A stretch of DNA of 64,000 bases from an uncultured Candidatus Saccharibacteria bacterium (GCA_964512835.1 CAZELA010000001.1:233372-297371), one strand, 5' to 3'; counted from the stretch's first letter, positions 2,987 to 52,044 are shown. Made by a program: numbers and translations. Notes: a model not told the origin generated them from the letters alone.

Positions 2987-3622
2987 ATGGACGAAGCACA
3001 TGTACTCGATGTTTTGCAGAAAGTAGGGGCATTCCGTGCGGGTCATTTTGTGTTTGTGTCGGGCCTTCATGCCGACACGTACGTGAATAAGAATGCGATG
3101 TATCCGTACACTCGCGAGATGTCGACGTTGTGTCGCGAGATTGCACAGCGGTTCAAAGGGCGAGGGGTTGAAGCGGTCGTCGGACCGGCGACCGGCGGCA
3201 TCATCTTGTCGCAATGGGTCGCGTATCATTTATCTGAGCTTGAAGGCCGCGAAGTGTATAGCGTGTACTCGGATAAGGATGGCGACGGGTTCGTGATCAA
3301 ACGAGGGTATAACGAATTGATAAAGGGTAAACAGGTGATTGTAGTCGAAGACCTTGTCACTACCGGAGGTTCGCTTCGGAAAGTTATCGAGGCGGCTCGC
3401 CAGGAAGGTGCGCATGTGCTTGCGGCTGTCGCTATTTGCAACCGTGGGAACGTTACGCGCGAGATGGCCGGAAACCCGCCCGAATTCATGTCTATGCTGA
3501 CTGTCGAGCTTGATCAGTGGCCGGAAGCGGAGTGTGACCTCTGCGCGCGGGGTATTCCGATCAATACCGATGTCGGTCATGGTAAGGACTTTTTACAAAA
3601 GCGAAGCACAATACTTTCATGA
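2987..3622 (+). CDS. pyrE: orotate phosphoribosyltransferase
   Basis: PRPP-binding motif VIVVEDLVTTGGS; follows pyrF. Confidence 0.85.
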   Translation: MDEAHVLDVLQKVGAFRAGHFVFVSGLHADTYVNKNAMYPYTREMSTLCREIAQRFKGRGVEAVVGPATGGIILSQWVAYHLSELEGREVYSVYSDKDGDGFVIKRGYNELIKGKQVIVVEDLVTTGGSLRKVIEAARQEGAHVLAAVAICNRGNVTREMAGNPPEFMSMLTVELDQWPEAECDLCARGIPINTDVGHGKDFLQKRSTILS

Positions 3623-12543: not shown

Positions 12544-12969
12544 ATGAAGGTAGTACACCTTGTAGTGCTGCTCCTTATGGGAGGCGCGGTCTCGGCCTAC
12601 GGGCACGACCATCCGAAATCGTTTGCGGGAGGGAACGGCGATTGGTTCAACACGCTTCCGCGTCCCGATAACGACAAGAATCCGGATCGGGACGCAAAAT
12701 CGAAACTATGTTGTACGAACGAAGACGTTGCCACGGTGCAGACGCGGATGGAGTTGCCGCCGGGAGGAAAGTACGAGGAGGCCGTGTGGTATGTCTGGAT
12801 CAATGTCTACCGGGCGAACGGTAAGCTCGAAAAAGACTGGGTCCGGGTGCCGGAGGATAAAATAGTGCACGAGCGTCCGCCGAACGGTGACGAGATCTCG
12901 GCGTACATCTATCTGATGGTCAGTGGGACTGCTATTACATGCTTCGTTCCACCACCACCGCCGACGTGA
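12544..12969 (+). CDS. hypothetical secreted protein
   Basis: Signal peptide MKVVHLVVLLLMGGAVSAYG; 141 aa; terminator GACCCGG...CCGGGTC at about 12985-13012. Confidence 0.45.
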   Translation: MKVVHLVVLLLMGGAVSAYGHDHPKSFAGGNGDWFNTLPRPDNDKNPDRDAKSKLCCTNEDVATVQTRMELPPGGKYEEAVWYVWINVYRANGKLEKDWVRVPEDKIVHERPPNGDEISAYIYLMVSGTAITCFVPPPPPT

Positions 12970-13081
12970 TGCATGCCTGTTGCGAAAAGACCCGGACAAT
13001 ACCGGGTCTTTATCATGTGACGCATTTTTATTTTACCCGTTCCTCTGGTAGGGTCAGGTCGGTCATTGAAGGAGGGTATGC

Positions 13082-13534
13082 ATGACTGCGACACCTGCGA
13101 TCCTGTTCGGCGGAGACTACTTCTGGTGGTGCTCCAATTTCGCCGCATTCCGGATGATCTGGGGTGGTCTGGTGTGGGATACGTCGGAACACATCTATCA
13201 GGCGGAGAAGTTTACCGACCCTGCGCTCCGGGCGTGGGTTCGCGAGGCGGAGTCGCCGCACGAGGCGAAACGTCGTGCGAATGAGCGCAAGGATGCGTGG
13301 CGCCCGGACTGGTACGCGGTCCGCGACTCCATCATGGAGAAAGTCGTTGCCGAAAAGGCGCGACAGCACCCGTGGGTCGCCAGGAAGCTTGAGGCAACCG
13401 GTGACCGCGAGATCGTCGAGAACGCGCCCTGGGATGAATACTGGGGTAACGGTAAAACCGGTACCGGGTTGAACAAGCTCGGCAAGACGTGGATGAAAGT
13501 TCGCGCGGATCGGCGCATTGCCGCGCATGTCTGA
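13082..13534 (+). CDS. NADAR (YbiA-like, DUF1768) domain protein
   Basis: FWWCSNFAAF...WDTSEHIYQAEKF...HEAKRRAN matches the NADAR/YbiA N-glycosidase family pattern; RBS AAGGAGGG. Confidence 0.65.
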   Translation: MTATPAILFGGDYFWWCSNFAAFRMIWGGLVWDTSEHIYQAEKFTDPALRAWVREAESPHEAKRRANERKDAWRPDWYAVRDSIMEKVVAEKARQHPWVARKLEATGDREIVENAPWDEYWGNGKTGTGLNKLGKTWMKVRADRRIAAHV

Positions 13535-13547
13535 TCGTTGGATCACG

Positions 13548-13582
13548 AAAAAAGCCCGACACACGGTGTGTCGGGCTTTTCC
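13548..13582. terminator. bidirectional terminator (NADAR / rpsA convergent)
   Basis: AAAAAAGCCCGACACACGGTGTGTCGGGCTTTTCC. Confidence 0.7.
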
Positions 13583-13595
13583 TTTTGTCGTTCGC

Positions 13596-14705
13596 TTACG
13601 CGATCGGCTTGAGAGTCATGCGGCGCTCCTTCGGTTCGAAGAAGGTGATCGTGAACTGATACACCTTGCCGAGTTCAAGCTTCGAGCGAAGTTCGTCTTC
13701 GCTGCCGAATTCGGAAATGTGTACGAGTCCTGCGACGCCTTCCTCGATGGAGGCGAGTGCACCGTGCTTGTTGTATTTGATGACAACCGCTTCCACCTGC
13801 TGATCTTTCTTGTACTTTGCTGCAGCAGCCTTCCACGGGTCTTCGACGAGGGCCTTGATCGAGAGCGACACCTTGTCGTCCTTGATCTCGATGACCTTCA
13901 CTTTCACCGGTTCACCGACCTTGTAACGGGTCTTCGGGTTTTCAACGAGTGCCCAATCCATTTCGGAGATGTGAACGAGTCCTTCGAGCGAGTCTTCGAG
14001 TTTAACGAAGACGCCGAACTCGGTCGCGCCGGTGACGACGCCGTCGAGCACGTCGCCCACGTTGTACTTGCCGACGAGCGATGCGCGCTCAGAGGTGCCT
14101 GCACCCTTTTCCGAGAAGATGAGCTTTTGCTCCTTCGGATTTGCGGTGATGACCATAACTTCGAGCTTCGTGCCGATCATCTTCTTGAGCTCGACAAAGA
14201 TCTTGTCCTTATCGCCGTCCGGAACGCGCGGGTAGTGCGCCGGAGAGAGCTGGGAGGCAGGGAGGAAGCCCTGAATCCCGTTCCAGTTGATGATAAGGCC
14301 GCCCTTGTTGGCATCCGTGATCGGAAGCTCGAATACAGTCTTCTTTTGTGATGCCTGTTCGGCTTCGTTCCAGATGAGTGCCTGTCGTGCCTCGCGGAGC
14401 GACAGCTCGATGTAGCCGTCGGCGTTTTCGCTGCCGACTACCTTTGCGGTTACCAAGTCGCCGATATTGACGTTCTTGAGGGTTTCGCGTGCCGAGAGGT
14501 ATTCGCGGCCGTAAATAATACCCGTACCGAACGGGTGGAGATCGACGTACACGCGTGCACGTCCGATCGCGACGACCGGTCCTTCGACCACGTCGTCAAT
14601 TACCGGCACCTTCGGTGCGGTAAGGAGAAGCTCGGCCATCGGGCCTTTTTTCTCCTGCACTACTTCGACATCGGTATCCTCGATGTCTTTGATGTTTTCT
14701 GCCAT
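13596..14705 (-). CDS. rpsA: 30S ribosomal protein S1 (short, 4 S1 domains)
   Basis: Repeated S1 OB-fold motifs (GxV.G.V...FGAFV-like) across 369 aa. Confidence 0.85.
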   Translation of the reverse strand: MAENIKDIEDTDVEVVQEKKGPMAELLLTAPKVPVIDDVVEGPVVAIGRARVYVDLHPFGTGIIYGREYLSARETLKNVNIGDLVTAKVVGSENADGYIELSLREARQALIWNEAEQASQKKTVFELPITDANKGGLIINWNGIQGFLPASQLSPAHYPRVPDGDKDKIFVELKKMIGTKLEVMVITANPKEQKLIFSEKGAGTSERASLVGKYNVGDVLDGVVTGATEFGVFVKLEDSLEGLVHISEMDWALVENPKTRYKVGEPVKVKVIEIKDDKVSLSIKALVEDPWKAAAAKYKKDQQVEAVVIKYNKHGALASIEEGVAGLVHISEFGSEDELRSKLELGKVYQFTITFFEPKERRMTLKPIA

Positions 14706-14874
14706 TGTGTTGAGCGTTTGGGGTCTTGCTCCTTACGCTACCGAGGTCTATCGGAAGCAAGATGTAACCCGCACACTGAAACTAATAAATGGTCCGTGCA
14801 CTATATATAGAGCGCGACGCTTATGCAAGACGCCGCTCGAGGCGACGGGCGCAGATATGGTACTATGCCGTTTC

Positions 14875-15339
14875 ATGATGAAGCGAGTCGCAGAACTTCA
14901 GGAAAAAGTAGGCTCCCGGGCCGGCGGTTTTTTGCATGAATTCTGGGCGTTCGCCGCAAAAGGAAACGTATTCGACCTCGCGGTCGCCGTTATCCTCGGT
15001 AACTCGTTCGGTGCGGTTGTTAACTCATTCGTCGCGGATGTCGCAATGCCGACGCTCTCGATCGCGACCGGCGGACTTGAGGACTTGAGCGGACTCAAGT
15101 ACCAGCTCAGCAATAACGTGGTGATCAGTTACGGGCACCTGATGCAGGTGTTTCTGAATTTCATCATCATCGCACTCTCCATTTTCCTTATGTTTAAAGT
15201 AATTTCGAGCCTGCGAAAGCGACTCGCAAAGAAAGAGGAGGCGAATCCCGAGGTGAAACCGGAACCCACCGACGACCAGAAGTTGTTGATCGAAATACGC
15301 GATCTTCTGAAAGCGAATCTTCATTCGCACAAAGACTAA
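14875..15339 (+). CDS. mscL: large-conductance mechanosensitive channel
   Basis: EFWAFAAKGNVFDLAVAVILGNSFGAVVNSFVADVAMP matches the MscL N-terminus; ATG at 14875 inside the longer track ORF. Confidence 0.85.
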   Translation: MMKRVAELQEKVGSRAGGFLHEFWAFAAKGNVFDLAVAVILGNSFGAVVNSFVADVAMPTLSIATGGLEDLSGLKYQLSNNVVISYGHLMQVFLNFIIIALSIFLMFKVISSLRKRLAKKEEANPEVKPEPTDDQKLLIEIRDLLKANLHSHKD

Positions 15340-15341
15340 GA

Positions 15342-15372
15342 AAAAAGCCCGGGAACCCGGGCTTTTCAATGT
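15342..15372. terminator. bidirectional terminator
   Basis: AAAAAAGCCCGGGAACCCGGGCTTTTCAATG. Confidence 0.7.
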
Positions 15373-15385
15373 GCGATCGCGACGC

Positions 15386-15637
15386 TCAGGTGCGACGGAT
15401 GATGTTGTTTGTCCCTTGCGTGTGCTCGCGGTGCGTTTTGAAGCACGCATGGAGCGCATTACCGGTCGACGCTTCAACGTCGAAGCTGCGTGCCCGGTTC
15501 TCGTCCGCCTTGTCGTAGTACCAGCACGTGAACGTGCGGACAATCGGTGCCGACGGGTCTTCCGCGTATTGCGACAGTGCCAGCGCACCGGACATCGTTA
15601 CAAGCAGGGCGCATGCGGCGGCGATAAGTGCTTTCAT
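15386..15637 (-). CDS. small secreted cysteine-containing hypothetical protein
   Basis: Internal ATG of the track ORF gives an 83-aa protein with signal peptide MKALIAAACALLVTMSGALA; the longer N-terminus overlaps the downstream divergent gene. Confidence 0.4.
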   Translation of the reverse strand: MKALIAAACALLVTMSGALALSQYAEDPSAPIVRTFTCWYYDKADENRARSFDVEASTGNALHACFKTHREHTQGTNNIIRRT

Positions 15638-23202: not shown

Positions 23203-23362
23203 GAAACGGGGACTCGATCACGAATAAAATCCACGCCGTCGCGATCAAGGGGGACTCGGCCAAGCGCTCGCTTCGTCGCCGTCGCGACGAAGCTCCGTTC
23301 GGCCCTGCTCGCGCATCCCCGTCTACTGACGGGGCCCCAGCGCTCGCTTTCTCGTCCCCGCC

Positions 23363-23410
23363 TTTGCTCTACCAAATACAAAAGATCGAGGCATGCCTCG
23401 ATCTTTTGTA
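23363..23410. terminator. long perfect palindrome / bidirectional terminator
   Basis: CAAATACAAAAGATCGAGGCATGCCTCGATCTTTTGTATTTG (19-bp stem). Confidence 0.7.
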
Positions 23411-23416
23411 TTTGTG

Positions 23417-23498
23417 TGGGCAAGGGGGGACTCGAACCCCCAATCCTTACGGAACCAGTTCCTAAGACTGGCGCGTATACCAATTCCGCCACTTGCCC
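23417..23498 (-). tRNA. tRNA-Leu (anticodon TAG), type II, CCA not encoded
   Basis: Manual fold: acceptor GGGCAAG/CTTGCCC, anticodon loop CTTAGGA, long variable arm, T-arm GGTTCGAGTCC. Confidence 0.8.
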
Positions 23499-23573
23499 AT
23501 CTGCACGATATTACACCTTTTCGGCTCGACCGAGCTATCGGTAACTCGCGCCGTAACGCACTATTTTCCTTTG

Positions 23574-23594
23574 CCAATTCCGCCACTTGCCCAT
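23574..23594 (-). repeat. exact 21-bp copy of the tRNA-Leu(TAG) 5' end in its upstream leader
   Basis: CCAATTCCGCCACTTGCCCAT also at 23480-23500; preceded on the tRNA strand by a TATAGT -10-like box. Confidence 0.7.
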
Positions 23595-27263: not shown

Positions 27264-27580
27264 GGCAATGAGAATATCTTGAATAGATTCCCGTGAGGGA
27301 AATCAATACAGGACTGGAGTTTAGGTCGATCCCTGCTTCTCTGGATCAGCTCTGGTTGATACGTAAAAGATACCATGTGAAAAATGATGTGTCAATGAAT
27401 CGTGATTTGTTTGAGGCTGATTCCGAGATGTGGTGCCGGCAAGTATCGAGATGCGACATCGACTACGCTCCATGAGTGGTCAGGGATATTTTCCTCGCCG
27501 CCGCTCGGAAAATTCCACGATTCTGCCTTGCCTGTCGCAAAAGCTTTTGCAACATGGCTCCGGCTCGCACAAAGCGAAAA
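27264..27580 (-). promoter_or_regulatory. probable long cspA 5' leader and promoter region (no convincing ORF)
   Basis: About 300 nt without coding signal between the upstream terminator and the cspA ATG; csp genes classically have long structured leaders. Confidence 0.35.
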
Positions 27581-27584
27581 AACC

Positions 27585-27612
27585 TGGCGCAGGCCAGGTT
27601 TGTTTCGTCTTT
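27585..27612 (-). terminator. terminator of the low-GC hypothetical gene
   Basis: AACCTGGCGCAGGCCAGGTT hairpin with T-run on the minus strand. Confidence 0.6.
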
Positions 27613-27643
27613 GTGCGCCCAATGGGACGTTATCGGAACGGAA

Positions 27644-28196: not shown

Positions 28197-28390
28197 TTGT
28201 CTGTGCGCCCACTAGGATCCTCCCAAGCGCTCGTATTTTGCCGTCGCAAAATACTCCGCTCGGGCCTGGTTTTGCTATCCCATCTGCTGATGGGCCCCAC
28301 GCAAAACCTTTCGAATCCTGACGCTCGCTTCGCTAGCTGTGGGCGCACTTGTAAACAGAAAACGGCCCTAAGGCCGTTTTCTGATTCAAG
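28197..28390 (-). repeat. tRNA-Lys trailer element
   Basis: Terminator AAAACGGCCCTAAGGCCGTTTTC (28359-28382), inverted acceptor copy (28338-28349), hairpin GTATTTTGC-GACG-GCAAAATAC (28233-28254), direct copy GTGCGCCCAC.AGGAT (28203-28217). Confidence 0.6.
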
Positions 28391-32004: not shown

Positions 32005-32009
32005 GTGAC

Positions 32010-32190
32010 GCCACGAGGGGTGTGCACCCGCCCATAACGCCCTTTGTTTAACTGGGCAGACCGTCGCGTGCGACGAGCTGGAATTACGAACACTACAATT
32101 GAGGCCACAGCGGGAGTTGCACCCGCCCATAACGGTTTTGCAGACCGTCGCGTTGCTACTTCGCCATATGGCCAGCGAAAGCTAACGCCG
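32010..32190 (+). repeat. two diverged tandem copies of an about 90-bp unit upstream of tRNA-Leu(TAA)
   Basis: GCACCCGCCCATAACG at 32027 and 32121; GCAGACCGTCGCGT at 32064 and 32143. Confidence 0.6.
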
Positions 32191-40134: not shown

Positions 40135-40836
40135 TCAGGCTGCTGCTGCGGATTTCACCGCAAGCGGAATGCCTTCGTTGAAGAACTGTTCGAGTCGCCG
40201 ATTCAATCCGGCCGGCCCGCCGTCGAGTGACACGTTGTCGAACCGTGTGATCGCGATATTCACGGGCACGCGGCCGAGCAGTCCGCCGTTCTGCAGCGAT
40301 GTGTGCAGTCCGTGGTGCTTCACGAGCAGGACCGGCAATCCCGGATGCTCCTTGATCATCGTATAGATGCCGGAGTAGCGGGGATCGATGACTTCGGTCA
40401 CGCCGTCGCCGATCTGACCGGAGGCGAAGACAAGCAGCAGCTTCTTCTTGGCCAGAACCTTGCTCATCGTCTCGAGTCCGAATGCCTTTTCGGCTTCGCG
40501 CTGCTCCGGAGTCCACGACCGGGGGGAACCGAGTCGGATCACGCCGAAGAGCACCATTGCCCATCGGAAGTGCATGCGCATGTACTGCGAGTACTTCGCG
40601 GTCGCGCGGAGCCGTGCGTATGGCCACGCGAGGATCATGAGGAGCGGGCCGTCTTCCATCGAATGATGGTTTGCCACAACGATGGCGCCGCTCTCTTTGC
40701 ACGAAAGTGCGGCATCGCCGCCTTCGATCGTGACGGGGTAGCGCCACGCGACAAACGGTCGGATGATCTGATACATGATGTCACGCATCACAACGCCGAA
40801 TGTGCCGTCGAGCAGTCTCAGAAACCACTTTCGCAT
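40135..40836 (-). CDS. plsC: 1-acyl-sn-glycerol-3-phosphate acyltransferase (LPLAT family)
   Basis: HX4D motif VANHHSMEDG; N-terminal hydrophobic anchor. Confidence 0.7.
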   Translation of the reverse strand: MRKWFLRLLDGTFGVVMRDIMYQIIRPFVAWRYPVTIEGGDAALSCKESGAIVVANHHSMEDGPLLMILAWPYARLRATAKYSQYMRMHFRWAMVLFGVIRLGSPRSWTPEQREAEKAFGLETMSKVLAKKKLLLVFASGQIGDGVTEVIDPRYSGIYTMIKEHPGLPVLLVKHHGLHTSLQNGGLLGRVPVNIAITRFDNVSLDGGPAGLNRRLEQFFNEGIPLAVKSAAAA

Positions 40837-40953
40837 TGCAATCTCCCTTGGTTTTTGCTGCGCGGGATAATGCAACACTTTTGCGTATTTATCAAGTATT
40901 CCTGATGCCCGCTCTAGCAGATAGGCCCTGATTGGTGCATACTAGTGCCACAA

Positions 40954-41036
40954 GCGTCGATGGCGGAGTGGTCAATCGCACTTGGCTGTAAACCAAGCGA
41001 CTTCGGTCTGCGCAGGTTCGAATCCTGCTCGGCGCA
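40954..41036 (+). tRNA. tRNA-Tyr (anticodon GTA), type II, CCA not encoded
   Basis: Manual fold: acceptor GCGTCGA/TCGGCGC, anticodon loop CTGTAAA, long variable arm, T-arm GCAGGTTCGAATCCTGC. Confidence 0.8.
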
Positions 41037-41230
41037 CAAACGCAAAAAGAACCCAATTGGGTTCTTTTTGCGTTTGTGCAGCACGAGAGCAGAGTGCTGA
41101 GCACTCTGCGGCAGGATTCGAACGCCGGAGCGATGTGAGCCCAGTAGGGCGAACCGCGAGGCGGTGCCCAGACAAACTTTTGCGACGGCAAAAGTTTAGT
41201 CGAGGGAGAATCCTGCTCGGCGCACAAAGT
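41037..41230 (+). repeat. tRNA-Tyr trailer element
   Basis: Terminator (41045-41070), palindrome GCAGAGTGCTGAGCACTCTGC, inverted T-arm-like CAGGATTCGAAC, hairpin AAACTTTTGC-GACG-GCAAAAGTTT (41174-41197), direct copy GAATCCTGCTCGGCGCACAAA (41208-41228 versus 41020-41040). Confidence 0.65.
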
Positions 41231-41276
41231 GCAAAAAGCCCCTAACCGGGGCTTTTTGCGTGGTACGATTTACCGC

Positions 41277-41684
41277 ATGATATTGAGGCAGGTGAAGGTA
41301 CTTGCGACCATTTCTGTCTTCGTGATGATGCTGCTCCCGCTGTACGCGACGGCAGCCGGCATTCCCACGCAGATCGTTCCGTCACAATACAACTGTGATC
41401 AGGAGGGAGGATGCGATTCTATCTGTGCGATCGTGGTACTGGCCCAGAACGTGCTCAATTTTGGCATCTTTATGGCGGTGGTCATTTCCGCTTTTTTGTT
41501 CGCCTACGCAGGCTGGAACATGCTCACATCGGGAGGTAATGCCGAAGTGTATGCAAAGGGGAAACGGGTATTCAGTAATGTTCTGATCGGACTCATCATT
41601 ATCCTGGCGGGCTGGATTGTGATCGATACCCTGATGAAAACCTTTACCGGCACGGGCCTGACTGGAGCGGGGATCTGCGTGTAG
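41277..41684 (+). CDS. TrbC/VirB2-like small membrane protein, paralog F
   Basis: Signal peptide ...LYATAAG; two helices; resembles paralogs A-E at 21.3-23.2 kb. Confidence 0.5.
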   Translation: MILRQVKVLATISVFVMMLLPLYATAAGIPTQIVPSQYNCDQEGGCDSICAIVVLAQNVLNFGIFMAVVISAFLFAYAGWNMLTSGGNAEVYAKGKRVFSNVLIGLIIILAGWIVIDTLMKTFTGTGLTGAGICV

Positions 41685-41690
41685 TGGAAA

Positions 41691-42251
41691 TTGACACTAC
41701 AGCAGGGAATTGTATTGTTTCCCCGGTTCATCACGGAGGACTTGTTCGTGCAAACACTCACTCACTTGGCGATTGGTGCCGCTATAGGCGCTGTTGCATT
41801 CCCACATCAACCGATCCTGCAGCTCTCGTGTGTGGCAGCATCAGTCGGTCCGGATGTAGTCATGATGCCGCTATTTGCGCTCGACAAACTACGGGGACGG
41901 CAGCCGCTCGTGCGACAGGGGCCGATCGTACTCACACTCAAGGAGTTGAGTCATTCGATTTTCCTCTGCGGCGCGTGTGGCTTGATCGGAATGCTGCTCG
42001 TGCTGCCGGTTGTTACTGCGTTCGCGCTCGGCTGGTTGGTGCACATTGTGATCGATATTCTCACGCACGCTGACCCAAAGTTTCAGGCTATCGGGGATCC
42101 GCACTACATCTGGCCCGTGGGCAGTCTGCGGAGCTGGGGGGTCTGGGAATATCGGATCGAGACCGGTCAGCTCTGGCCACTGAAGCCGCTTGAGCTCCAG
42201 GTACTCATTGCCTCGTCGGCCATGGCCGTCGTGGGGTGGGTTGTCCGGTAA
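41691..42251 (+). CDS. YdjM/DUF457-like membrane-bound metal-dependent hydrolase
   Basis: LTHLAIGAAIGAV N-terminus and HIVIDILTH motif. Confidence 0.5.
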   Translation: MTLQQGIVLFPRFITEDLFVQTLTHLAIGAAIGAVAFPHQPILQLSCVAASVGPDVVMMPLFALDKLRGRQPLVRQGPIVLTLKELSHSIFLCGACGLIGMLLVLPVVTAFALGWLVHIVIDILTHADPKFQAIGDPHYIWPVGSLRSWGVWEYRIETGQLWPLKPLELQVLIASSAMAVVGWVVR

Positions 42252-42351
42252 TGACAGCTCTTTGGGACCCCGTCGCAGTGCGACGGGGTCCGTATCATTG
42301 GAAGAAACAGGGGTTGATTTTAGCCCGGCCTTTCTGTATAGTGCTCGAACT

Positions 42352-42507
42352 ATGTCGCAGGACCAGCTCATAATGTTGAAGCACGCAGCCACCGGAGAGG
42401 TGTATTGGACGCGCAAGAACCGAAAGCTCGTGACCCGAAAGGTAGAGCTCAAGAAGTACAGCGCAAAGCTCCGCAAGCACGTGATTTTCAAAGAGACCAA
42501 GAAATAA
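42352..42507 (+). CDS. rpmG: 50S ribosomal protein L33 (non-zinc form)
   Basis: 51 aa ending VELKKYSAKLRKHVIFKETKK. Confidence 0.7.
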   Translation: MSQDQLIMLKHAATGEVYWTRKNRKLVTRKVELKKYSAKLRKHVIFKETKK

Positions 42508-42579
42508 CAAAAAAAGAAAGAGTCCGGGAAACCGGACTCTTTCTTTATGTCCCGAGACACCATATACTTGGCGACGTCA

Positions 42580-42650
42580 GGGCGATTAGTTTAGTGGTAG
42601 AACAGCGGTCTCCAAAACCGCTAGTGGGGGTTCGATTCCCTCATCGCCCG
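42580..42650 (+). tRNA. tRNA-Trp (anticodon CCA)
   Basis: Manual fold: acceptor GGGCGAT/ATCGCCC, anticodon loop CTCCAAA, T-arm GGGGGTTCGATTCCC. Confidence 0.8.
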
Positions 42651-42652
42651 CA

Positions 42653-42820
42653 ATGATCAAAAAAGACGCGCAAGCGTCTTTTTTGCCAAACATTGCGAGG
42701 CGATGAGGGAATCGAAAGGCGGAGGCGGGGCACCCGCGTACCCGCGGGTCGCCGAGCCAGGGCAGTGACCACTTGCCCGAAGGGCTTAGTGAGTTACGCC
42801 GCTTCCCTCATCGCCCGCAA
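42653..42820 (+). repeat. tRNA-Trp trailer element
   Basis: Terminator AAAAAAGACGCGCAAGCGTCTTTTTT, inverted copy GGCGATGAGGGAATCGAA (42699-42716), direct copy TTCCCTCATCGCCCGCAA (42803-42820); the two copies can pair as a 13-bp stem. Confidence 0.6.
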
Positions 42821-42831
42821 CAAGTGGTACA

Positions 42832-43242
42832 GTGCACGGCATGAATAACGAACTCTTGTTTCCCGCACTTTCGACCATGATCGCGCTCATGGTGTATTAC
42901 TCGCAGGGCATCTTTGTATCGCTCGCCCGTCGCAAGCACGGTATTGCAGCCCCAAAAACAACCGGCAACGAGGCATTTGAAAACGTATTCCGTGTGCACT
43001 ACAACACGCTCGAGAATTTGCCGATTTTCCTAACATCACTCTGGTTCTTTGCGCTGCTTGTAAGTCCATATGTCGCAGGATGGCTTGGGCTCGCATGGTC
43101 TGTGGGACGAATCGGCTACATGTACGGCTACTACAAATCTGCGCAGACTCGTCACAGCTACGGTTCGGTGATCTCGTACCTTGCGCTGCTGCCGCTCATC
43201 GCGGGTTCGTTTTGGGGAATCATTTCGGGACTCATTCGCTAA
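42832..43242 (+). CDS. MAPEG family membrane protein
   Basis: Four TM helices with RVHYNTLENLPIFL (MAPEG R-x-H-x-N-x-x-E motif). Confidence 0.55.
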   Translation: MHGMNNELLFPALSTMIALMVYYSQGIFVSLARRKHGIAAPKTTGNEAFENVFRVHYNTLENLPIFLTSLWFFALLVSPYVAGWLGLAWSVGRIGYMYGYYKSAQTRHSYGSVISYLALLPLIAGSFWGIISGLIR

Positions 43243-43251
43243 CGAAATTGT

Positions 43252-43686
43252 ATGGAACTGCAAGTCGGCGTAAAAGTGCTCTTGAAGAATCGCGAGGGGA
43301 AGTTTCTGTTGCTCCGTCGAGCCTACGATCCGGAACACACGGTACAAAATAAGTGGGACGTGCCCGGCGGGCGCATCAATCCGGGTACGCCGCTCATGGA
43401 AAACCTTGCTCGCGAGGTGTCGGAGGAAACGGGTCTCGTGATGACTGCGACGCCTGTCATTGTTGCGGCACAGGACCTCTTGCCGAAACAGCTTGCACAT
43501 CGACATGTAGTGAGAATCACATACCTCGGAGCTGCGGACGGCGACGTACGTTTGAGCGAAGAGCATATTGAGTATCGCTGGTTCGACTTTTCGGAGATTA
43601 CAGCGCTTCCAAATCTCGACAGTTACTTTAAAAAGCTTATCGACGACGGTGTTATTTCCGAGGCAGTACTGCAGCACATGAGCTAA
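43252..43686 (+). CDS. NUDIX hydrolase
   Basis: Nudix box GGRINPGTPLMENLAREVSEETGL. Confidence 0.7.
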   Translation: MELQVGVKVLLKNREGKFLLLRRAYDPEHTVQNKWDVPGGRINPGTPLMENLAREVSEETGLVMTATPVIVAAQDLLPKQLAHRHVVRITYLGAADGDVRLSEEHIEYRWFDFSEITALPNLDSYFKKLIDDGVISEAVLQHMS

Positions 43687-43765
43687 CGCTGCTATTCAGT
43701 GGGCCCGAGTTGCTGTCGTGATCGTGCGGTACTATGGAGGCATTAGTCACATAGTTTTGTACGAC

Positions 43766-44083
43766 ATGTCGGGAAAAACAATCGGTATCGTACTTGTGCT
43801 ACTCGTGCTCGTAGGCGGAGGATACTACTTCGTCTCGATGAAGGGTGGCGCAAACATACCCGCACTATCAGGAATGAATGATTCACAAGATGCAGTGAGT
43901 GGCGGCACAGCTGCCGTTCCTGCCCAGAGTGGATCCGTCGAAGATTTTAGTGCTTCAATCGATAGCGAACTGCAGGCAACTGCGGCAGGAATGAAGGACA
44001 TGGACGCTCAGACAGACGCATCGGTTTCAGGTATTCAACTTACCGGCGATAGTTCACGATTGTATGACCCGAACAACCTCTAA
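43766..44083 (+). CDS. hypothetical membrane-anchored protein
   Basis: ATG at 43766; TM IGIVLVLLVLVGGGYYFV. Confidence 0.35.
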   Translation: MSGKTIGIVLVLLVLVGGGYYFVSMKGGANIPALSGMNDSQDAVSGGTAAVPAQSGSVEDFSASIDSELQATAAGMKDMDAQTDASVSGIQLTGDSSRLYDPNNL

Positions 44084-44876
44084 TGCGTGGCGCGCGGCAA
44101 CCGCGGCGGCACTGATTGCCGGTATGGTCATGCCCACATTTGCGCTTGCACAGACTCGTGGCGAGCGTCTCGATGCTGCGCGTGATGCAGCCAAGGAGCG
44201 TCGGGCAAGTACAACACCGAATGGGCAGGGAGGAAAAAATTTCTGTACCAACATTGATTCGGTACTCTCAAAGATGAATGAGGGTCGAGCCACGGTCGGT
44301 GAGAATCGCGACGAAAAGCGCGAGACTCGTGACGGGAAGATGAGCGATAAGCGCGGCGAGAAAACACAGACGCTCGATGACAAACGGTCCGAGCACGATC
44401 AGAGCCGCATGGACGGCTACGCAAAGATGGAGGCGCGCGCAACCACAACCGAGCAAAAGGCGGCGGTCGCTGCATTCAAAGCGACGGTAGAGGCAGCGGT
44501 TGCTAAACGAAAAGCTGCGGTTGATGCGGCCATTTCCACGTACCGCACGGCGGTCGATAAGCTTATTTCCGACCGTCGAGCGGCGGTGGACGCTGCTGCG
44601 GCGACGCACAAGAGCGCGATTGATGCTGCGCAGGCTAAGGCAAAGGCTGATTGTGCTTCCGGTGTTGATCCTGCAGGGGTGCGCACGACAATGCGTGATG
44701 CAATCAAGGCTGCAAACGATGCATTCAAGACTGCGGCAAAGCGCCCTGAAGACCTTAAGGGTCAGGTACAGGTATTGCGCGACACGCGCGATGCATCAGT
44801 AAAGGCTGCAATGGAAACGTTTAAGGCTGAATACGAGGCGGCAAAGAACACGCTCAAAGCGGCGCTTGGTCGCTAG
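44064..44876 (+). CDS. secreted Ala-rich repeat protein
   Basis: Signal peptide; repeated AAVDAA / KAA..A.. helical repeats. Confidence 0.45.
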   Translation: MTRTTSNAWRAATAAALIAGMVMPTFALAQTRGERLDAARDAAKERRASTTPNGQGGKNFCTNIDSVLSKMNEGRATVGENRDEKRETRDGKMSDKRGEKTQTLDDKRSEHDQSRMDGYAKMEARATTTEQKAAVAAFKATVEAAVAKRKAAVDAAISTYRTAVDKLISDRRAAVDAAAATHKSAIDAAQAKAKADCASGVDPAGVRTTMRDAIKAANDAFKTAAKRPEDLKGQVQVLRDTRDASVKAAMETFKAEYEAAKNTLKAALGR

Positions 44877-44905
44877 GAGACTCCGCTCAGCAAAAATCGC
44901 CGGCT

Positions 44906-45850
44906 CTACCGGCGATTTTTGTTTGGCACTGCAGTGTGCGAGATGTGCGCTTTCACGCAACGCTCAATTGCCGCGTAGGCAGTTGGGTCGAACCAGTGAA
45001 TGTCTTTGTTCCGGTTCCAGTAGCCCGTTTGTTTACGGGCGTATCGCCGGATCTCGCTCAACAGGGTGGTGATCAATTGTTCTTTTGTGATCTTGTTTTC
45101 GAGCAGGTCCGCGAGTGAGCGGTATTCGAGACCGAGCTCGCGCATTCGCTTGTACGAGACACCCTGCTTTTTGAGGCGCTTAGCTTCGGCTACCATACCC
45201 GCCTTGATACGTGCGAGCAGCCGGGTCCGTATTTTTTTCTCCAGTACGCTCGCGCTCGGAGAGATTCCGAGCCAGAGCGGCGCATACAACGCCTCGGGGT
45301 CTAACCTCGGAGATTCTGGGGGCTGTGCTGAAGCGGCGATTTCGAGCGCTCGAATGAGGCGCACGGGATTATTACGCTCGCTCGGTGTGTCCATGGCTTG
45401 TGCGCGCTTCGCATCCTTTTTCTTCAGCATGGCGAACAGCTGCGCCGCGGTTTTTCCCGTAAGTGACGCTCGCAATTTCGGATTTGGTGCGACGTTCGGC
45501 AGATCGACTCGGCCCATAAGTGCATCGATGTAGAAACCGGTGCCTCCGACTACGATGGGGAGCTTGCCGCGTTTGACGATATCGGCGATCGCTCTGTGTG
45601 CGGCCTTTGTGTAATCGCCGGCACTGAACACACGCTTCGGCGAGGCGACGTCGAGCAGATGATGCGGAATACCCGCCATCTCCTTTTTCGTTACCTTGCC
45701 GGTGCCGATATTGAGACCTTTGTATACTTGTCTCGAATCCGCGGAGACAATCTCGCCGTTGAGCTTTTTGGCCAGACGCACGGCAAGGCCGCTTTTGCCC
45801 GAAGCGGTGGGACCGACAATAACGACAACCCTGTGCGGCTGCATTTGCAT
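44906..45850 (-). CDS. miaA: tRNA dimethylallyltransferase
   Basis: P-loop VVIVGPTASGKSGLAV...SADSRQVYKGLNIGTGK; start at MQMQPH inside the longer track ORF. Confidence 0.85.
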   Translation of the reverse strand: MQMQPHRVVVIVGPTASGKSGLAVRLAKKLNGEIVSADSRQVYKGLNIGTGKVTKKEMAGIPHHLLDVASPKRVFSAGDYTKAAHRAIADIVKRGKLPIVVGGTGFYIDALMGRVDLPNVAPNPKLRASLTGKTAAQLFAMLKKKDAKRAQAMDTPSERNNPVRLIRALEIAASAQPPESPRLDPEALYAPLWLGISPSASVLEKKIRTRLLARIKAGMVAEAKRLKKQGVSYKRMRELGLEYRSLADLLENKITKEQLITTLLSEIRRYARKQTGYWNRNKDIHWFDPTAYAAIERCVKAHISHTAVPNKNRR

Positions 45851-45874
45851 GCGCGGAAGCGTACAATATTTCCT

Positions 45875-46228
45875 ATGGTTTACCACCCCGATCATCCCGA
45901 GCGGCGAACGGTTTTTTTTGATGATGAGTGCGAACTGTGCGAGGACGCCGCCGTGCGACTGCAGAAGGAAATCGGTGTATCCATCAGGGGAGCGTCGTCG
46001 GACACCGGACAGTTCATCGACAAAGAGACGCTCGTACGCGAACTGCATGCAATGGACGAGAACGGCGTGATGCATACGGGGATAGATGCCGTGATCGTGA
46101 TCCTGCGATGGCATCCGCAGGGGAAATACGTGGCGCCGATTGTGGCATTACCCGGTATAAAGCAGCTCGGGGCACTCGTATATCGAATAGTCTCTGCCAA
46201 CCGCCACCGTTGGTCGAGAAAGGGCTAA
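45875..46228 (+). CDS. DCC1-like thiol-disulfide oxidoreductase (DUF393) family protein
   Basis: VFFDDECELCEDA (D-x-C-x-x-C) near the N-terminus. Confidence 0.55.
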   Translation: MVYHPDHPERRTVFFDDECELCEDAAVRLQKEIGVSIRGASSDTGQFIDKETLVRELHAMDENGVMHTGIDAVIVILRWHPQGKYVAPIVALPGIKQLGALVYRIVSANRHRWSRKG

Positions 46229-46248
46229 TGCGGTAGTATTGTCCGCGG

Positions 46249-46330
46249 GCCGGAATGGCGGAATTGGTATACGCACACGACTCAAAATCGTGCGCCTCAC
46301 GGCTTGTGGGTTCGAGTCCCACTTCCGGCA
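46249..46330 (+). tRNA. tRNA-Leu (anticodon CAA), type II, CCA not encoded
   Basis: Manual fold: acceptor GCCGGAA/TTCCGGC, anticodon loop CTCAAAA, long variable arm, T-arm GGGTTCGAGTCCC. Confidence 0.8.
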
Positions 46331-46507
46331 CACAAAATCAAAAAGCAGGGCATGTCCCTGCTTTTTGATTTTGTGGCACGGAAGTGGGACTCGAAAGCGA
46401 GTCCTGGGCCCCCGCGAGCACGTGGGGATGGACGAGCAGGGCAGAGAAACTTTTTAACGCGACGGCGTTAAAAAGTGTTCTTGGCCGAGTCCCACTTCCG
46501 GCTTTTT
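46331..46507 (+). repeat. tRNA-Leu(CAA) trailer element
   Basis: Terminator palindrome (46335-46371), inverted copy GCACGGAAGTGGGACTCGAA (46376-46395), hairpin ACTTTTTAACGC-GACG-GCGTTAAAAAGT (46449-46476), direct copy GAGTCCCACTTCCGGC plus TTTTT (46487-46507). Confidence 0.65.
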
Positions 46508-46560
46508 ACAATATGCGCATGTGTGGCATAATCGCCCCGGCAACATTCGGGAGGGCACAC

Positions 46561-46923
46561 ATGGCACTACGGGTTCCTGAGCCGGGTGACGAGATCGACG
46601 GACGGGTCATCGACGAAGTCGGTGAGCCGAGGGCGATCAAGGATCGTCACAGTATTGTCGTTGTACGAATGAGCGACAGAAAGTACGAGATCGTGTCGAT
46701 CACGGAGTTCCGGGCCGGTGAACAGAAGATGCGGTACTGGGAAACCGATAATGAACTCATACGCAGGGCGCTCGATACCGCGCTCGACTTTCCGGTCGCC
46801 GCAAGCGGCTCGGTGGGCGAGCTTCGCGTATGGGGCAAGACGGTGTTCGGTAATTTTTCAGCCGTAATCTTCTACGACGCCAAGAAAACCAGCGGTGTAC
46901 AGGATTCGTTCACGTATACCTGA
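46561..46923 (+). CDS. hypothetical protein
   Basis: RBS GGGAGGG; 120 aa. Confidence 0.4.
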   Translation: MALRVPEPGDEIDGRVIDEVGEPRAIKDRHSIVVVRMSDRKYEIVSITEFRAGEQKMRYWETDNELIRRALDTALDFPVAASGSVGELRVWGKTVFGNFSAVIFYDAKKTSGVQDSFTYT

Positions 46924-49622: not shown

Positions 49623-49733
49623 TTACTTCTTTTTCTTCGCCGTCTTCTTGTCGGATGATGCCCCCTCCAGCTTATGCGGGTTGTGCATGGGACATGTTTT
49701 TTGACTACAGCGCTCCGGAATCGTTTTTGGTCA
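49623..49733 (-). pseudogene. displaced duplicate of the topA 3'-terminal coding segment
   Basis: Minus-strand translation between stops: PKTIPERCSQKTCPMHNPHKLEGASSDKKTAKKKK versus the topA C-terminus ...TKTIPERCSQKTCPMHNPHKLEGVAKKKK; 29-bp identical core CCCTCCAGCTTATGCGGGTTGTGCATGGG. Confidence 0.7.
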
Positions 49734-49829
49734 CACGTTCGTGTCGTCCCGTCGGACGCCACGACGTGCGACCCCGGCTCAGGATCGCACGCTGCTGCGT
49801 GCGATATCCTTCCGCCTCACAAAAACGAA

Positions 49830-49851
49830 ACACGAGGCGCAGGCCTCGTGT
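49830..49851 (-). terminator. topA terminator hairpin abutting the stop codon
   Basis: ACACGAGGCCTGCGCCTCGTGT then TTTCGTTTTTG on the minus strand. Confidence 0.6.
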
Positions 49852-52044
49852 TTACTTCTTCTTTTTGGCGACACCCTCCAGCTTATGCGGGTTGTGCATG
49901 GGGCATGTCTTTTGGCTGCATCGTTCCGGGATCGTCTTTGTGCCTTCCATCATGAGCGAGTCACATAGCTTGCAGCGAGCTCCCGTGGGTCGGGCTTTGA
50001 TTGCATTCTTACACTTAGGGTAGTTGGAGCACGCGTAGAATAAACCGAATCGTCCGCGTCGTTCCACCATCTCTCCGTCGCTGCAGATATTGCACTTCAC
50101 GCCGGTCTTTGCCTTCGCTTCCTGTTCCGGGTCTTGCTTCACGAATTTGCACTTAGGGAAGTTCGAGCAGGCGATGAACGGTCCGAATCGGCCTTCGCGC
50201 AGGATCAGTTTGCCGCCCTTCGTTTCGCCGCAATCGGGACAGACTTCGCCGATTTCCTTGGGTGGCGGGATCTCACTGCCGTCCTCGCGTCGCGCACCAA
50301 GACACTCGGGGAATTTCTTGCACGACATAAACCGGCCCGCTTTGGAGAGTTTGTATTCCATCGGACCCTTACAGATCGGACAGGGGAATTCCTCGGGGGC
50401 ATCACCCATGCCGGTGATCTTTGCGATCTTCTCCTTGCCTTTGACCGCTTTCTTGAACGGTGTGTAGAAATCTTTGAGAGTTTTCTCGTATTCTCGAGTG
50501 CCGTCAGAGATCTCATCGAGTTCGTTCTCCATCTCCGCGGTGAACGTGTCCGAAATATACTCACCGAAATTATTCTCAATGAACGTGGACACAACGTCGC
50601 CGGTTGCCGTCGGGATCATGGTGCGACCCTGCTTTTCCACATAGCCGCGCGTCTCGAGTGTGCGGATGATCGACGCATAGGTCGACGGTCGACCGATGCC
50701 GCGACTTTCGAGCTCCTTCACAAGACCTGCCTCTGAATAGCGTCCCGGCGGCTGCGTTTCCTTGCCTTCGGTGTGCGCTTCTACGAGATCGAGCGGATCG
50801 TGCGCTGCAACCTTCGGCAGCTCCACGTCTTCGCCGCGGGCATCCGGATCTGCTGCGAGCCAGCCGTCGAATGTAACGCGGGAGCCGTTGGCGGAAAAAT
50901 CGGGGATGGTTGCACCGCTGACGTTTGCGATGATCTTCGTTCGAAGGGTCTTCGCGTCGGCCATTTGACTCGAGAGTGCTCGGGCACGGATGAGTGTATA
51001 GAGCTTCTTCTGCTCTTCGTTGTTGCCGCATGTTGCTTTGTGCGGATTGGTCGGACGTACAGCTTCGTGTGCCTCCTGCGCATTCTTGCTTTTTGATTTG
51101 TATTCACGTGCCTCTACATACGCTGCGCCGAATTCGCTTGTAGCAACTGCAACGAGCGCCGCCTGCGCTTCCTTGGCGAGGTTCGGACTATCGGTTCGCA
51201 TATAGGTGATGTGACCGGCTTCGTAGAGTTTCTGCGCGATACCCATCGTGCGGGACGGAGAGAACCCGAGCCGGGTCGACGCGGCCTGTTGCAGTGTGGA
51301 TGTTGTGAACGGTGCACGCGGCGAGCGTTTTGCTTCGGACTCATCAACGGAAATGACTTTCCAATCTTTTGTGGTCGCCGCCTTGTAGATGCGCTCGGCC
51401 TCTGCCTCGGTCTTCGGCTCCTCGACGCAGGTAACCGTGAATTGCTCTTTTTTCTTTGTTTTGACATCGGCGCTCACCACCCAAAACTTCTCGGGGACGA
51501 ATGCACGGATCTCGCGCTCGCGCTCCATAATGATGCGGAGTGCCGGCGATTGCACGCGGCCGGCCGACAAGCCATACCGCACCTTTTTCCATATGAGGCC
51601 GGAGAGGTCGTAGCCGAAGAGGCGGTCGAGGACGCGACGGGCTTCCTGGGCGGATACGAGTTGCTCATCGATCTTGCGGGGGTGGGCAATCGCTTCCTGT
51701 ACGGCATTCTCCGTAATCTCGTGAAATACGATGCGTTTCGGCTTTTTGAGTCCGATCGTAACGGCCAAATGGTGCGCGATCGCTTCGCCCTCGCGGTCTG
51801 GGTCTGTTGCAAGAATAACCTCAGTCGAGCGACCGGCAATGTCCTTCAGTTCATCGATGATTTTCTGTTTTTCTTTCACGATCTGATAGCGCGGCACAAA
51901 ACCGCCCTCGATATCGACGGCGTCTTTATTGCTTTTCGGCAGATCGCGTATGTGGCCCACCGATGCACGGACCGTGTATCCGTGACCCAGATACTTTTCG
52001 ATCGTTTTTGCTTTGGCGGGGGATTCAACGATGACTAATTTCAT
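49852..52044 (-). CDS. topA: DNA topoisomerase I
   Basis: Toprim plus topo IA core, C-terminal C4 zinc ribbons, Lys-rich tail; 730 aa. Confidence 0.95.
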   Translation of the reverse strand: MKLVIVESPAKAKTIEKYLGHGYTVRASVGHIRDLPKSNKDAVDIEGGFVPRYQIVKEKQKIIDELKDIAGRSTEVILATDPDREGEAIAHHLAVTIGLKKPKRIVFHEITENAVQEAIAHPRKIDEQLVSAQEARRVLDRLFGYDLSGLIWKKVRYGLSAGRVQSPALRIIMEREREIRAFVPEKFWVVSADVKTKKKEQFTVTCVEEPKTEAEAERIYKAATTKDWKVISVDESEAKRSPRAPFTTSTLQQAASTRLGFSPSRTMGIAQKLYEAGHITYMRTDSPNLAKEAQAALVAVATSEFGAAYVEAREYKSKSKNAQEAHEAVRPTNPHKATCGNNEEQKKLYTLIRARALSSQMADAKTLRTKIIANVSGATIPDFSANGSRVTFDGWLAADPDARGEDVELPKVAAHDPLDLVEAHTEGKETQPPGRYSEAGLVKELESRGIGRPSTYASIIRTLETRGYVEKQGRTMIPTATGDVVSTFIENNFGEYISDTFTAEMENELDEISDGTREYEKTLKDFYTPFKKAVKGKEKIAKITGMGDAPEEFPCPICKGPMEYKLSKAGRFMSCKKFPECLGARREDGSEIPPPKEIGEVCPDCGETKGGKLILREGRFGPFIACSNFPKCKFVKQDPEQEAKAKTGVKCNICSDGEMVERRGRFGLFYACSNYPKCKNAIKARPTGARCKLCDSLMMEGTKTIPERCSQKTCPMHNPHKLEGVAKKKK

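Follow-up and report, generated by a model that had tools for sequence, protein, structure and literature searches.

The DNA behind the tRNA-Trp(CCA) gene in a 64,000-nucleotide (nt) stretch from an uncultured Candidatus Saccharibacteria bacterium (GCA_964512835.1, CAZELA010000001.1:233372-297371), which we analyzed as a whole and refer to as the window, raises the question of what kind of sequence follows a gene with both an inverted and a direct copy of the gene's own 3' end. An earlier note on this DNA had described a terminator, an inverted copy, and a direct copy, the two copies forming a 13-base pair (bp) long-range stem, and had offered two explanations, i.e. a small structured RNA or an attachment (att) scar. 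Our tentative answer, which may well be wrong, is that the tRNA-Trp trailer is a non-autonomous, target-specific insertion element (~130-190 nt, devoid of open reading frames (ORF)), which functions as a folded gene-sense single strand.

Re-reading of the sequence placed the terminator hairpin, inverted copy, and direct copy exactly where they had been reported, to the base, and the locus can be divided into the parts listed in Table 1. The target within the functional tRNA (A1) comprises the end of the T-loop, the 3' strands of the T-stem and of the acceptor stem, and the discriminator, followed by CAA. The left end of the insert is a hairpin (H) with the sequence AAAAAAGACGC-GCAA-GCGTCTTTTTT, which in its form here is a bidirectional intrinsic terminator composed of an A-tract, a GACGC/GCGTC stem, a GCAA loop, and a T-tract. 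The internal inverted copy (A') reads TGCG-A-GGCGATGAGGGAATCGAA, with GGCGATGAGGGAATCGAA at 42699-42716, and is complementary to positions 54 to 75 of the tRNA with a single bulged A at 42698. This bulge and the flanking ATCATTGCG are found again in Trp-linked copies of many contigs. The direct copy (A2) pairs with A' to form P1, the closing stem of a three-way junction. RNA folding recovered the long-range stem as described, with 13 contiguous bp, and extended it beyond the bulged A by 4 bp (TGCG 42694-42697 with CGCA 42816-42819).

The enclosed ~85 nt fold into two hairpin domains, P2 and P3, which bears out their description as hairpin-rich, the CCGCG-TACC-CGCGG hairpin singled out in the earlier note being the tip of P2. 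The latter is built from a GGC/GCC base, a GGA/GA internal loop, a GGCG/CGCC stem, and an apical hairpin (CACCCGCG-TACC-CGCGGGT). P3 reads GGGCAG..CACTT-GCCC GAA GGGC-TTAGTG..ACGCC and stands in place of the GACG-tetraloop hairpin seen in other window copies. The Trp trailer had been described as a variant without the GACG hairpin, which is a real difference, explained by the fact that this copy is a member of a conserved subfamily ('d') with a different P3 (general form GGGCAG..CACTTAG-hairpin-CTTAGTG..ACGCC). The three-way junction predicted for RNA from 42694 to 42822 has a free energy of -78.5 kcal/mol and a z-score of -7.1 that no shuffle equals. Folded as DNA, the Trp element is equally significant (z = -9.4), and z-scores across its folds range from -7 to -10. 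A' has an alternative partner, i.e. the real gene end A1, with which it forms a long hairpin capped by H. In the predicted fold of the full read-through RNA, A1-A' pairing is thermodynamically favored, with A2 completing the tRNA, and on this model a terminator at H would shield tRNA folding from A1-A' pairing.

That the trailer is no more than a usual terminator with repeats arising by chance in the GC-rich spacer behind it has practically no probability. H alone does look like an ordinary intrinsic terminator (an 11-12-bp stem including A/T pairs, a GCAA loop, and T6). It makes up about 26 of the ~170 nt of the trailer, and the U-tract is missing from homologous H hairpins of other lineages, such as the AGACGC-loop-GCGTCT hairpins in the Trp elements of loci L013 and L171 (L numbers denote loci on other contigs). 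What refutes this explanation is the exact 18-nt repeat, together with the fold z-scores, the covariation described below, and seven covariance-model matches in the window and dozens elsewhere. The 18-mer has two exact matches in the 64-kb window, the tRNA end and the direct copy; when up to three mismatches are allowed, shuffles predict 0.04 matches, and none of 100 shuffled sequences reaches two. A tandem tRNA duplicate or pseudo-tRNA was likewise rejected, as A' is an exact reverse complement of the 3' strands. The Trp A' reads GAGGG, not GGGGG as in the tRNA, and AATCGAA, not TTCGATT, whereas the Tyr A' follows GCGCCGA, not GCGTCGA.

The unit formed by H, A', P2, and P3, together with one of the 18-nt copies of the tRNA end, has been inserted, as seen in a filled/empty pair of metagenomic contigs that are otherwise identical at the site. 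The flank CTTCGCTCGTCGAAGCGAGC follows the tRNA end in L150 and A2 in L172, so that compared with L150 the L172 insert amounts to 131 nt (H, A', and core) with an 18-nt duplication (GATTCCCTCATCGCCCGC). The orthologous tRNA-Trp of a close relative (L011) has no element, the element at the L013 tRNA-Trp belongs to a different core subfamily, and one and the same tRNA can carry different core subfamilies across genomes. The direct copy is therefore an insertion footprint, and to this extent the att scar proposed in the earlier note stands. The rest of that proposal does not. No decaying island remnant is present, and what is found instead is a complete, recurrent unit of ~130-190 nt with no ORF and with compensatory changes. 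Accordingly, it is very unlikely that these trailers are passive scars, i.e. attL/attR and attP-arm fragments of mostly deleted integrase-type islands or prophages in tRNA genes. Direct repeats of tRNA 3' ends are a hallmark of such integrations, larger insertions occur at the same points (2.5 kb with a serine recombinase in L001, 2.7 kb in L013), and phage 21 and e14, inserted in icd, are known to supply a protein gene with a replacement 3' end. However, the same fold recurs as a complete unit at more than eight different targets in many genomes, substitutions are compensatory instead of reflecting decay, ORF remnants are absent, and a target-specific inverted copy has no place in such scars. 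There was also no match to the element by blastn in phage and plasmid records, and two pattern scans of viral contigs returned only two chance matches, both inside coding regions.

The larger insertions have features of their own. In L013 (~12600-15540), a third tRNA-Trp 3' end lies 2.9 kb downstream of the tRNA, beside a DAGK gene that in L011 directly follows tRNA-Trp. The 2.7-kb interval between two Trp-end copies encodes a 732-aa AAA_13 ORF and a 93-aa ORF, i.e. it is a larger insertion at the same site. In L001 (13083-15585; also in L002 and L006, from the same species), a 2.5-kb low-GC insertion separates the tRNA-Leu(CAA) 3' end from H. It has two modules, delimited by inverted repeats of ~100 nt, and the first module encodes a 479-aa large serine recombinase.

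The element is not restricted to tRNA-Trp. A covariance model (R1), built from an alignment (A3) of 14 elements and used without filters, identified seven copies in the window, five behind tRNAs, one behind topA, and one degenerate (Table 1); the Trp copy scores 46 bits (E = 5e-9). Five of the seven window tRNAs (Trp, Tyr, Leu-CAA, Lys, and Leu-TAG) thus bear the element. The order of hairpin, inverted copy, and direct copy reported for the Lys, Tyr, and Leu-CAA tRNAs is indeed found there, and also at Leu-TAG and topA. All five tRNA-linked copies are arranged as A1, H, A', P2, P3, A2, have arms matching their own tRNA, and fold as the same three-way junction. There are individual variations: the duplication of the Tyr copy is 54 nt long and includes a second terminator, A' of the Lys(CTT) copy is split by an extra hairpin, and the direct copy at Leu(TAG) is partly decayed. 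The degenerate copy is preceded by a third, decayed tRNA-Lys 3' end with a terminator, and lies downstream of a DUF3997 ORF (Pfam).

At topA, the stop codon is followed by a terminator hairpin, TCGTTTTT (which pairs with AAAAACGA), P2, P3, and a copy of the topA end. This 67-nt copy is 88% identical to the 3' coding end and has its own stop codon and terminator, and the same arrangement is present in the orthologous copies of L011, L013, and L019. Generally, then, A' repeats in inverted form the beginning of the duplicated 3' end of the upstream gene, whichever gene this is. Mimicry of an acceptor/T-stem by the closing helix is present in tRNA-linked copies and absent from topA-linked members, the P1 of which is of non-tRNA sequence, which means that tRNA mimicry is a consequence of the target and not a family trait. 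As a separate observation, both copies of the segment encoding the TopA C-terminal zinc ribbon (49663-49729 and 49874-49940) keep an open frame; their differences between genomes are mostly synonymous, and the copies within a genome are more alike. This suggests that the two copies undergo gene conversion, or that the second one is translated by some route.

Covariation argues for a conserved structure. In the 14-element alignment, with an assigned structure of 37 pairs and 500 shuffles, 80.4% of the cells can pair, compared with 57.8% in shuffles (none of the 500 reaches the observed value) and 35-50% after sliding of the partners. Double-sided changes number 123, compared with 44 in shuffles. 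P2 and P3 covary strongly, whereas junction nucleotides are poorly conserved. The Trp copy differs from its closest relative, L121, mainly by three compensatory pairs in the tip of P2, and a G-U pair in its P3 is a G-C pair in L121. No Rfam family, be it of ribozymes, riboswitches, small RNAs, T-boxes, tmRNA, retron msr, or group I/II introns, matches the Trp region. In an Rfam 15 gathering scan of the whole window only the seven tRNAs reached threshold, and a permissive E-value scan of 40900-46600 (5.7 kb, covering subfamilies a, b, and d) gave chance-level matches only, the best being isrK (27 bits versus 50). Hence neither an Rfam match nor a lack of covariation, two outcomes that would have spoken against the earlier note, was obtained.

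The fold is strand-specific. Summed over 28 elements, the minimum free energy is -1508 kcal/mol for the sense strand and -1292 kcal/mol for the antisense strand, and the folds contain 66 and 33 G-U pairs, respectively. An antisense RNA was rejected on these grounds, the minus strand folding worse by 216 kcal/mol with half the G-U pairs. P2, P3, and many H hairpins have tandem G-A internal loops and GNRA, GNA, or ANYA loops, motifs that would be U-C or meaningless on the antisense strand. Every copy is co-oriented with its upstream gene, and a consensus promoter scan of 40800-46700 found none between H and A', where there is no room for one. The sense-strand fold, the co-orientation, and the lack of a promoter between H and A' together favor a read-through transcript as the folded molecule. 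Single-stranded DNA (ssDNA) folds equally well as RNA. Three window copies are on the plus strand and four on the minus strand while GC skew is uniformly positive, which argues against a mechanism limited to lagging-strand ssDNA. Hence, of the structured RNA suggested in the earlier note, the structure is supported by the conserved three-way junction, the covariation, and the better fold of the sense strand, whereas action as an RNA is putative.

Table 1. Parts of the tRNA-Trp locus and copies of the element in the window
Feature	Coordinates	Strand	Basis
tRNA-Trp(CCA), host gene	42580..42651	+	ARAGORN; Rfam tRNA 70.7 bits; CCA not encoded
A1, target within functional tRNA	42636..42653	+	Exact 18-mer, one of two window copies
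H hairpin, left end of insert	42659..42684	+	Sequence and folds
A', internal inverted copy of tRNA 3' end	42694..42716	+	Sequence and folds
P2 hairpin domain	42718..42758	+	Fold; family covariation; three compensatory pairs versus L121
P3 hairpin domain, subfamily 'd'	42761..42800	+	Fold; same type in L121, L051, L198, L200
A2, direct copy of tRNA 3' end, TTCCCTCATCGCCCGCAA	42803..42820	+	Exact repeat; pairing; repeat D7
Tyr copy, subfamily 'b'	41038..41261	+	R1 at 41112-41216, 78.6 bits; repeat D2
Leu(CAA) copy, subfamily 'a', GACG loop	46332..46503	+	R1 at 46385-46495, 98.9 bits; repeat D10
Lys(CTT) copy, subfamily 'a'	28203..28389	-	R1 at 28212-28320, 98.8 bits; repeat D12
Leu(TAG) copy, subfamily 'a'	23245..23415	-	R1 at 23249-23359, 96.9 bits
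topA copy, subfamily 'c'	49663..49851	-	R1 at 49720-49828, 47.7 bits; repeat D1
Degenerate copy	27478..27625	-	R1 at 27478-27565, 22.7 bits, E = 0.0024

The window is otherwise ordinary chromosome, encoding ClpC, L33, MiaA, ParB, TopA, FtsZ, GyrA, and IF-2. Two tRNA genes also display partial duplications of another kind. The 5' end and leader of tRNA-Leu(TAG) have a 21-nt, 100%-identical duplicate 94 nt upstream (23480-23500 and 23574-23594, minus strand), both copies being preceded by a -10-like box, with ~73 nt of unrelated sequence between them. Directly downstream of tRNA-Cys lies a degenerate partial second copy, from the anticodon arm to the T arm (32005-32100, minus strand; repeats D9 and D16), at which no three-way-junction element was found.

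The element family is widespread in bacteria of the Candidate Phyla Radiation (CPR). R1 has dozens of matches in other Parcubacteria/Paceibacterota contigs. The ~2.1 Mb of CPR DNA covered contains 340 tRNAs followed by 250 nt or more of sequence, and for 56 of these the tRNA's own 3' end is repeated in the next 300 nt (at most one mismatch in 14), which is far above chance. The tRNAs with duplicated ends are those for Leu (four anticodons), Trp, Tyr, Lys, and Ala. When metagenomes were scanned with a 26-nt piece from the 3' part of tRNA-Trp, 120 loci were returned, and among the 111 with at least 250 nt downstream, 17 have a direct copy and about 30 an inverted copy. Presence of the element is lineage-specific: there are 31 R1 matches in 183 kb of contigs bearing the Trp element and two in 474 kb of contigs without it. 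For the organism of the window itself, the names of MiaA homologues and synteny with named assemblies point to a Kaiserbacteria-like member of the Parcubacteria/Paceibacterota group; in a MiaA search of genome contigs, relatives are at most 58% identical among the matches listed. The window MiaA itself (44906-46114, minus strand) has an N-terminal extension of ~95 residues compared with ~300-aa homologues of related CPR genomes. A literature search of limited coverage found no description of the element family, which is apparently a family of ~150-nt folded gene-end insertion elements new to the literature.

Copies appear to turn over. Tandem arrays in which the older copy is distal and decayed are found in L209, L078, L122, and at the Lys locus of the window, and in L121 the repeated segment takes in the whole of H. 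Trp-linked copies with different cores share the left end AATGATC...ATCATTGCG-N-GGCGAT. Cores on different targets of one genome can be 81-87% identical. The idea that cores cluster by genome was not retained, as it holds only weakly, mean core identity being 0.65 for copies on one contig, 0.61 for copies that share a target but not a contig, and 0.58 for the remainder. The shared Trp left end, combined with the likeness of cores across targets in one genome, suggests target-specific lineages in which cores are swapped by recombination. Two further loci show rearrangements. In L201 (560-1775), a second tRNA-Trp with a Trp-type element occupies the usual place of tRNA-Tyr, upstream of a 151-aa ORF and L33, and its direct copy is chimeric (Trp T-stem and Tyr acceptor strand). 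This chimera is either a product of ectopic recombination between elements or an assembly chimera at a repeat. In L078 (9555-10080), two tandem elements follow tRNA-Leu(CAA), and the first direct copy (TTCAAGT.., CTCCTGC) differs from the resident tRNA (TTCGATT.., CCGAGGC); it looks as if the resident tRNA-Leu(CAA) was wholly replaced.

If the trailer is an insertion element, it could work as follows. The working molecule would most likely be the read-through transcript, ssDNA being less likely. A' would be an internal guide that reads the target sequence, while a trans-acting enzyme would recognize P2, P3, and H by their structure. Insertion and precise excision would consist of an exchange between two A copies, equivalent to the recombination of a small circle (A-H-A'-P2-P3) with a gene end. 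The predicted excision junction is A2 (...CATCGCCCGC) joined to AATGATC..., and the predicted empty site is tRNA-Trp joined to CAAGTGGTACAG. The host gene would remain intact and insertion harmless because the 3' end is duplicated and H often acts as a terminator, and tRNA ends would tolerate the element because the host gene stays intact. Spread between genomes would be aided by the conservation of tRNA 3' ends, and cores may be exchanged among copies of one genome by recombination. It is doubtful, although worth considering, that this represents a new class of guide-directed mobile element, in which a ~150-nt folded RNA or ssDNA with a 9-23-nt guide (A') is inserted and excised by exchange between two target copies, by a trans enzyme that reads only the shape of P2/P3/H.

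Several points weigh against an insertion element of this kind. How both an inverted and a direct copy of a new target would be acquired is left unexplained. No enzyme was found among window ORFs or by tblastn, and no transcript or excised intermediate is on record. The H hairpins of the window all resemble strong terminators and should therefore keep read-through RNA low. The length of the duplication varies; it is mostly 17-21 nt, but 54 nt for the window Tyr copy, more than 50 nt in L121, and at least 67 nt for topA. Finally, the orthologous Tyr elements of the window and L011 share 92% identity and show compensatory changes in P2 and P3, whereas the two flanking terminators have fully diverged to unrelated sequence. 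Such conservation looks like purifying selection in place, and may indicate a host function, i.e. an element that is not purely selfish.

Searches for a candidate enzyme covered the window and the element-bearing loci. Among the 30 largest window ORFs, which are housekeeping genes or lack a Pfam match, there is no integrase, transposase, or reverse transcriptase, and tblastn with recombinase, LAGLIDADG, and Y1 queries found no homologue in the window. Tblastn with the Y1 protein of L014 found nothing in the window or in element-bearing loci. The candidates from relatives were also rejected. The L001 serine recombinase belongs to an independent insertion between A1 and H. LAGLIDADG ORFs abut tRNAs in Kaiserbacteria-like relatives (L014:9429-10004 and 12593-13387; homologues in L029, L071, L050, and L067), one directly after tRNA-Leu(CAA) and one directly before tRNA-Tyr, i.e. 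at the positions of window elements, but these tRNA-adjoining loci have neither a duplication nor an element. The Y1 (IS200-like) ORF of L014 is flanked by two copies of a hairpin (CCGATGAGGTCAGACCTCATCGG; 2511-2529 and 3214-3232), and no elements were found near this gene. Its link to the family was rejected as the hairpin occurs at that gene only; the 8 nt it shares with the Trp arm were judged coincidental because the tRNA-Trp of L014 itself differs there.

The variable length of the duplication is more in line with recombination inside a homologous segment than with a staggered cut of the transposase type. Another explanation does without a dedicated enzyme. The trailer might be a hitch-hiker, spread between cells by natural transformation and homologous recombination, with the conserved tRNA body as left homology arm, A2 as portable right arm, and a folded core that has another role or none. 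The lack of a linked or window-encoded recombinase, the chimeric arms, and the tandem or partial units are in keeping with this, as is the observation that A copies (e.g. at topA) are more alike within than between genomes. CPR bacteria commonly carry competence genes, and a DprA and a ComEC-type ORF are present in related loci. Nevertheless, we consider this explanation rather improbable. It accounts neither for the existence of an A' that tracks the target, nor for the covariation of P2/P3, nor for the structured strand always being gene-sense, and RecA-type recombination would have very little to work with in a right arm of 17-21 nt.

The conservation of the Tyr element in place bears on another explanation, which we regard as unlikely, namely that the trailer is a non-coding RNA serving the host, produced by tRNA read-through, in which P1 imitates the acceptor/T-stem minihelix. 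Such an RNA could be cut by RNase P/RNase Z, receive CCA, or be bound by tRNA-binding proteins, and act as a decoy, regulator, or processing aid. Indeed, P1 of tRNA-linked copies is an acceptor plus T-stem duplex, and in several copies an extra hairpin branches off at precisely the acceptor/T junction, the point from which the D and anticodon arms of a tRNA emerge. The GNRA and ANYA loops and tandem G-A motifs of P2/P3, the better fold of the sense strand, the co-orientation with genes, and the presence of the element at five of the seven window tRNAs are also as expected of an RNA. However, P1 of the topA-linked copies (TCGTTTTT/AAAAACGA) is not tRNA, so that tRNA mimicry is not defining, and P1 usually runs beyond the discriminator into the trailer. 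In addition, the element is missing from many related genomes and orthologous tRNAs, the junction nucleotides are poorly conserved, and a terminator, H, lies upstream of the putative RNA.

We then compared the element with known systems. Like integrase-type islands and their cis-mobilizable derivatives (CIME), and like the icd phages, it is inserted at the 3' end of a tRNA or protein gene; as with islands and CIME, the duplicated gene end keeps the gene intact, a displaced copy lies downstream, and there are tandem arrays. It differs from them by its total size of ~130-190 nt, the absence of an integrase in the insert, a target-specific inverted copy, a covarying three-way junction, and the use of one core for many targets. 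By the features that define a CIME, the insert is flanked by a direct repeat (exact over 18 nt, and confirmed by the filled/empty pair), but there are no integrase or island-gene remnants and no neutral decay, the interior being 131-150 nt with no ORF and with compensatory changes. With the attP of CTX-type integrative mobile elements exploiting Xer (IMEX), and with integron attC sites, it shares inverted and direct target-like copies ~90 nt apart that form a target-mimicking stem, recognition based on structure, and newcomers that displace older ones from the target. Nonetheless, it has no dif-like or R/L core, its targets are arbitrary gene ends, and its whole length is 150 nt, outside any phage or gene cassette. 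No mimic of dif as in IMEX is found, since P1 consists of tRNA or topA ends that differ by copy, with no common motif.

Palindrome-associated elements of IS200/IS605 (PATE) and repetitive extragenic palindromes (REP) or their doublets (REPIN), which depend on HUH/Y1 enzymes, are similarly small, ORF-less, and made of imperfect hairpins, and their precise excision and mobilization in trans would be shared as well. In these, a short sequence 5' of the hairpin foot pairs with the cleavage or target site. The geometry here is alike, A' being directly 5' of the foot of P2 and A 3' of P3, but the guide pairs as a helix of 9-23 bp, not 4 nt. Further differences from PATE and REPIN are that the target is apparently duplicated, that there is no replication-strand bias, and that no Y1 gene was found in the window, the Y1 gene of L014 having its own unrelated hairpins. 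Group I/II introns also have a 5'-proximal segment complementary to host sequence on both sides of the insert, but the element shows no intron catalytic core (there is no Rfam match), its flanking "exons" are one sequence present twice, and the host gene needs no splicing. Domain V of group II introns was rejected as a model for P3, which has a 9-bp lower helix but lacks the AGC triad, 2-nt bulge, and GNRA-capped 5-bp upper helix. Hammerhead and other small ribozymes were rejected too, since junction strands of GAAA, 0-3 nt, and 0-2 nt are incompatible with them and the junction nucleotides are poorly conserved. Fungal mitochondrial double-hairpin elements and GC clusters are likewise short, mobile, GC-rich two-hairpin modules found beside or inside genes and associated with rearrangements, but their host and sequence are unrelated and they are not known to have target-derived arms, inverted or direct. 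A MITE (miniature inverted-repeat transposable element) was excluded, as the inverted repeat A'/A2 is target-specific, not element-specific, and the duplication ranges from 17 to at least 67 nt, i.e. is not fixed. A diversity-generating retroelement was excluded because the topA copies differ at eight positions that are mostly C/T on the gene strand and not adenine-specific, because the repeats at tRNAs show no differences, and because there is no reverse transcriptase in the window ORFs scanned. Altogether, the element does not fit the defining tests of any of the families compared (MITE, REPIN, PATE, attC, CIME). By analogy, it would be most like a folded-strand attachment site (CTX-type attP or integron attC) or the hairpin-plus-guide end of IS200/IS605.

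These findings have practical consequences. The repeats can yield chimeric CPR assemblies, and duplicated tRNA ends can mislead predictors of att sites and genomic islands. They also provide a substrate for several questions, i.e. how non-autonomous elements without a linked protein achieve specificity for a long target sequence, whether tRNA read-through transcripts of these organisms have a function, and why tRNA 3' ends are hot spots of rearrangement. If our reading is true, a large share of the tRNA genes in small-genome CPR bacteria would be followed by a compact structured element bearing its target sequence in both directions. The more doubtful new class of guide-directed mobile element, if real, would be naturally reprogrammable and could possibly be used as a tool, and would also explain the dynamic tRNA gene ends of CPR bacteria.

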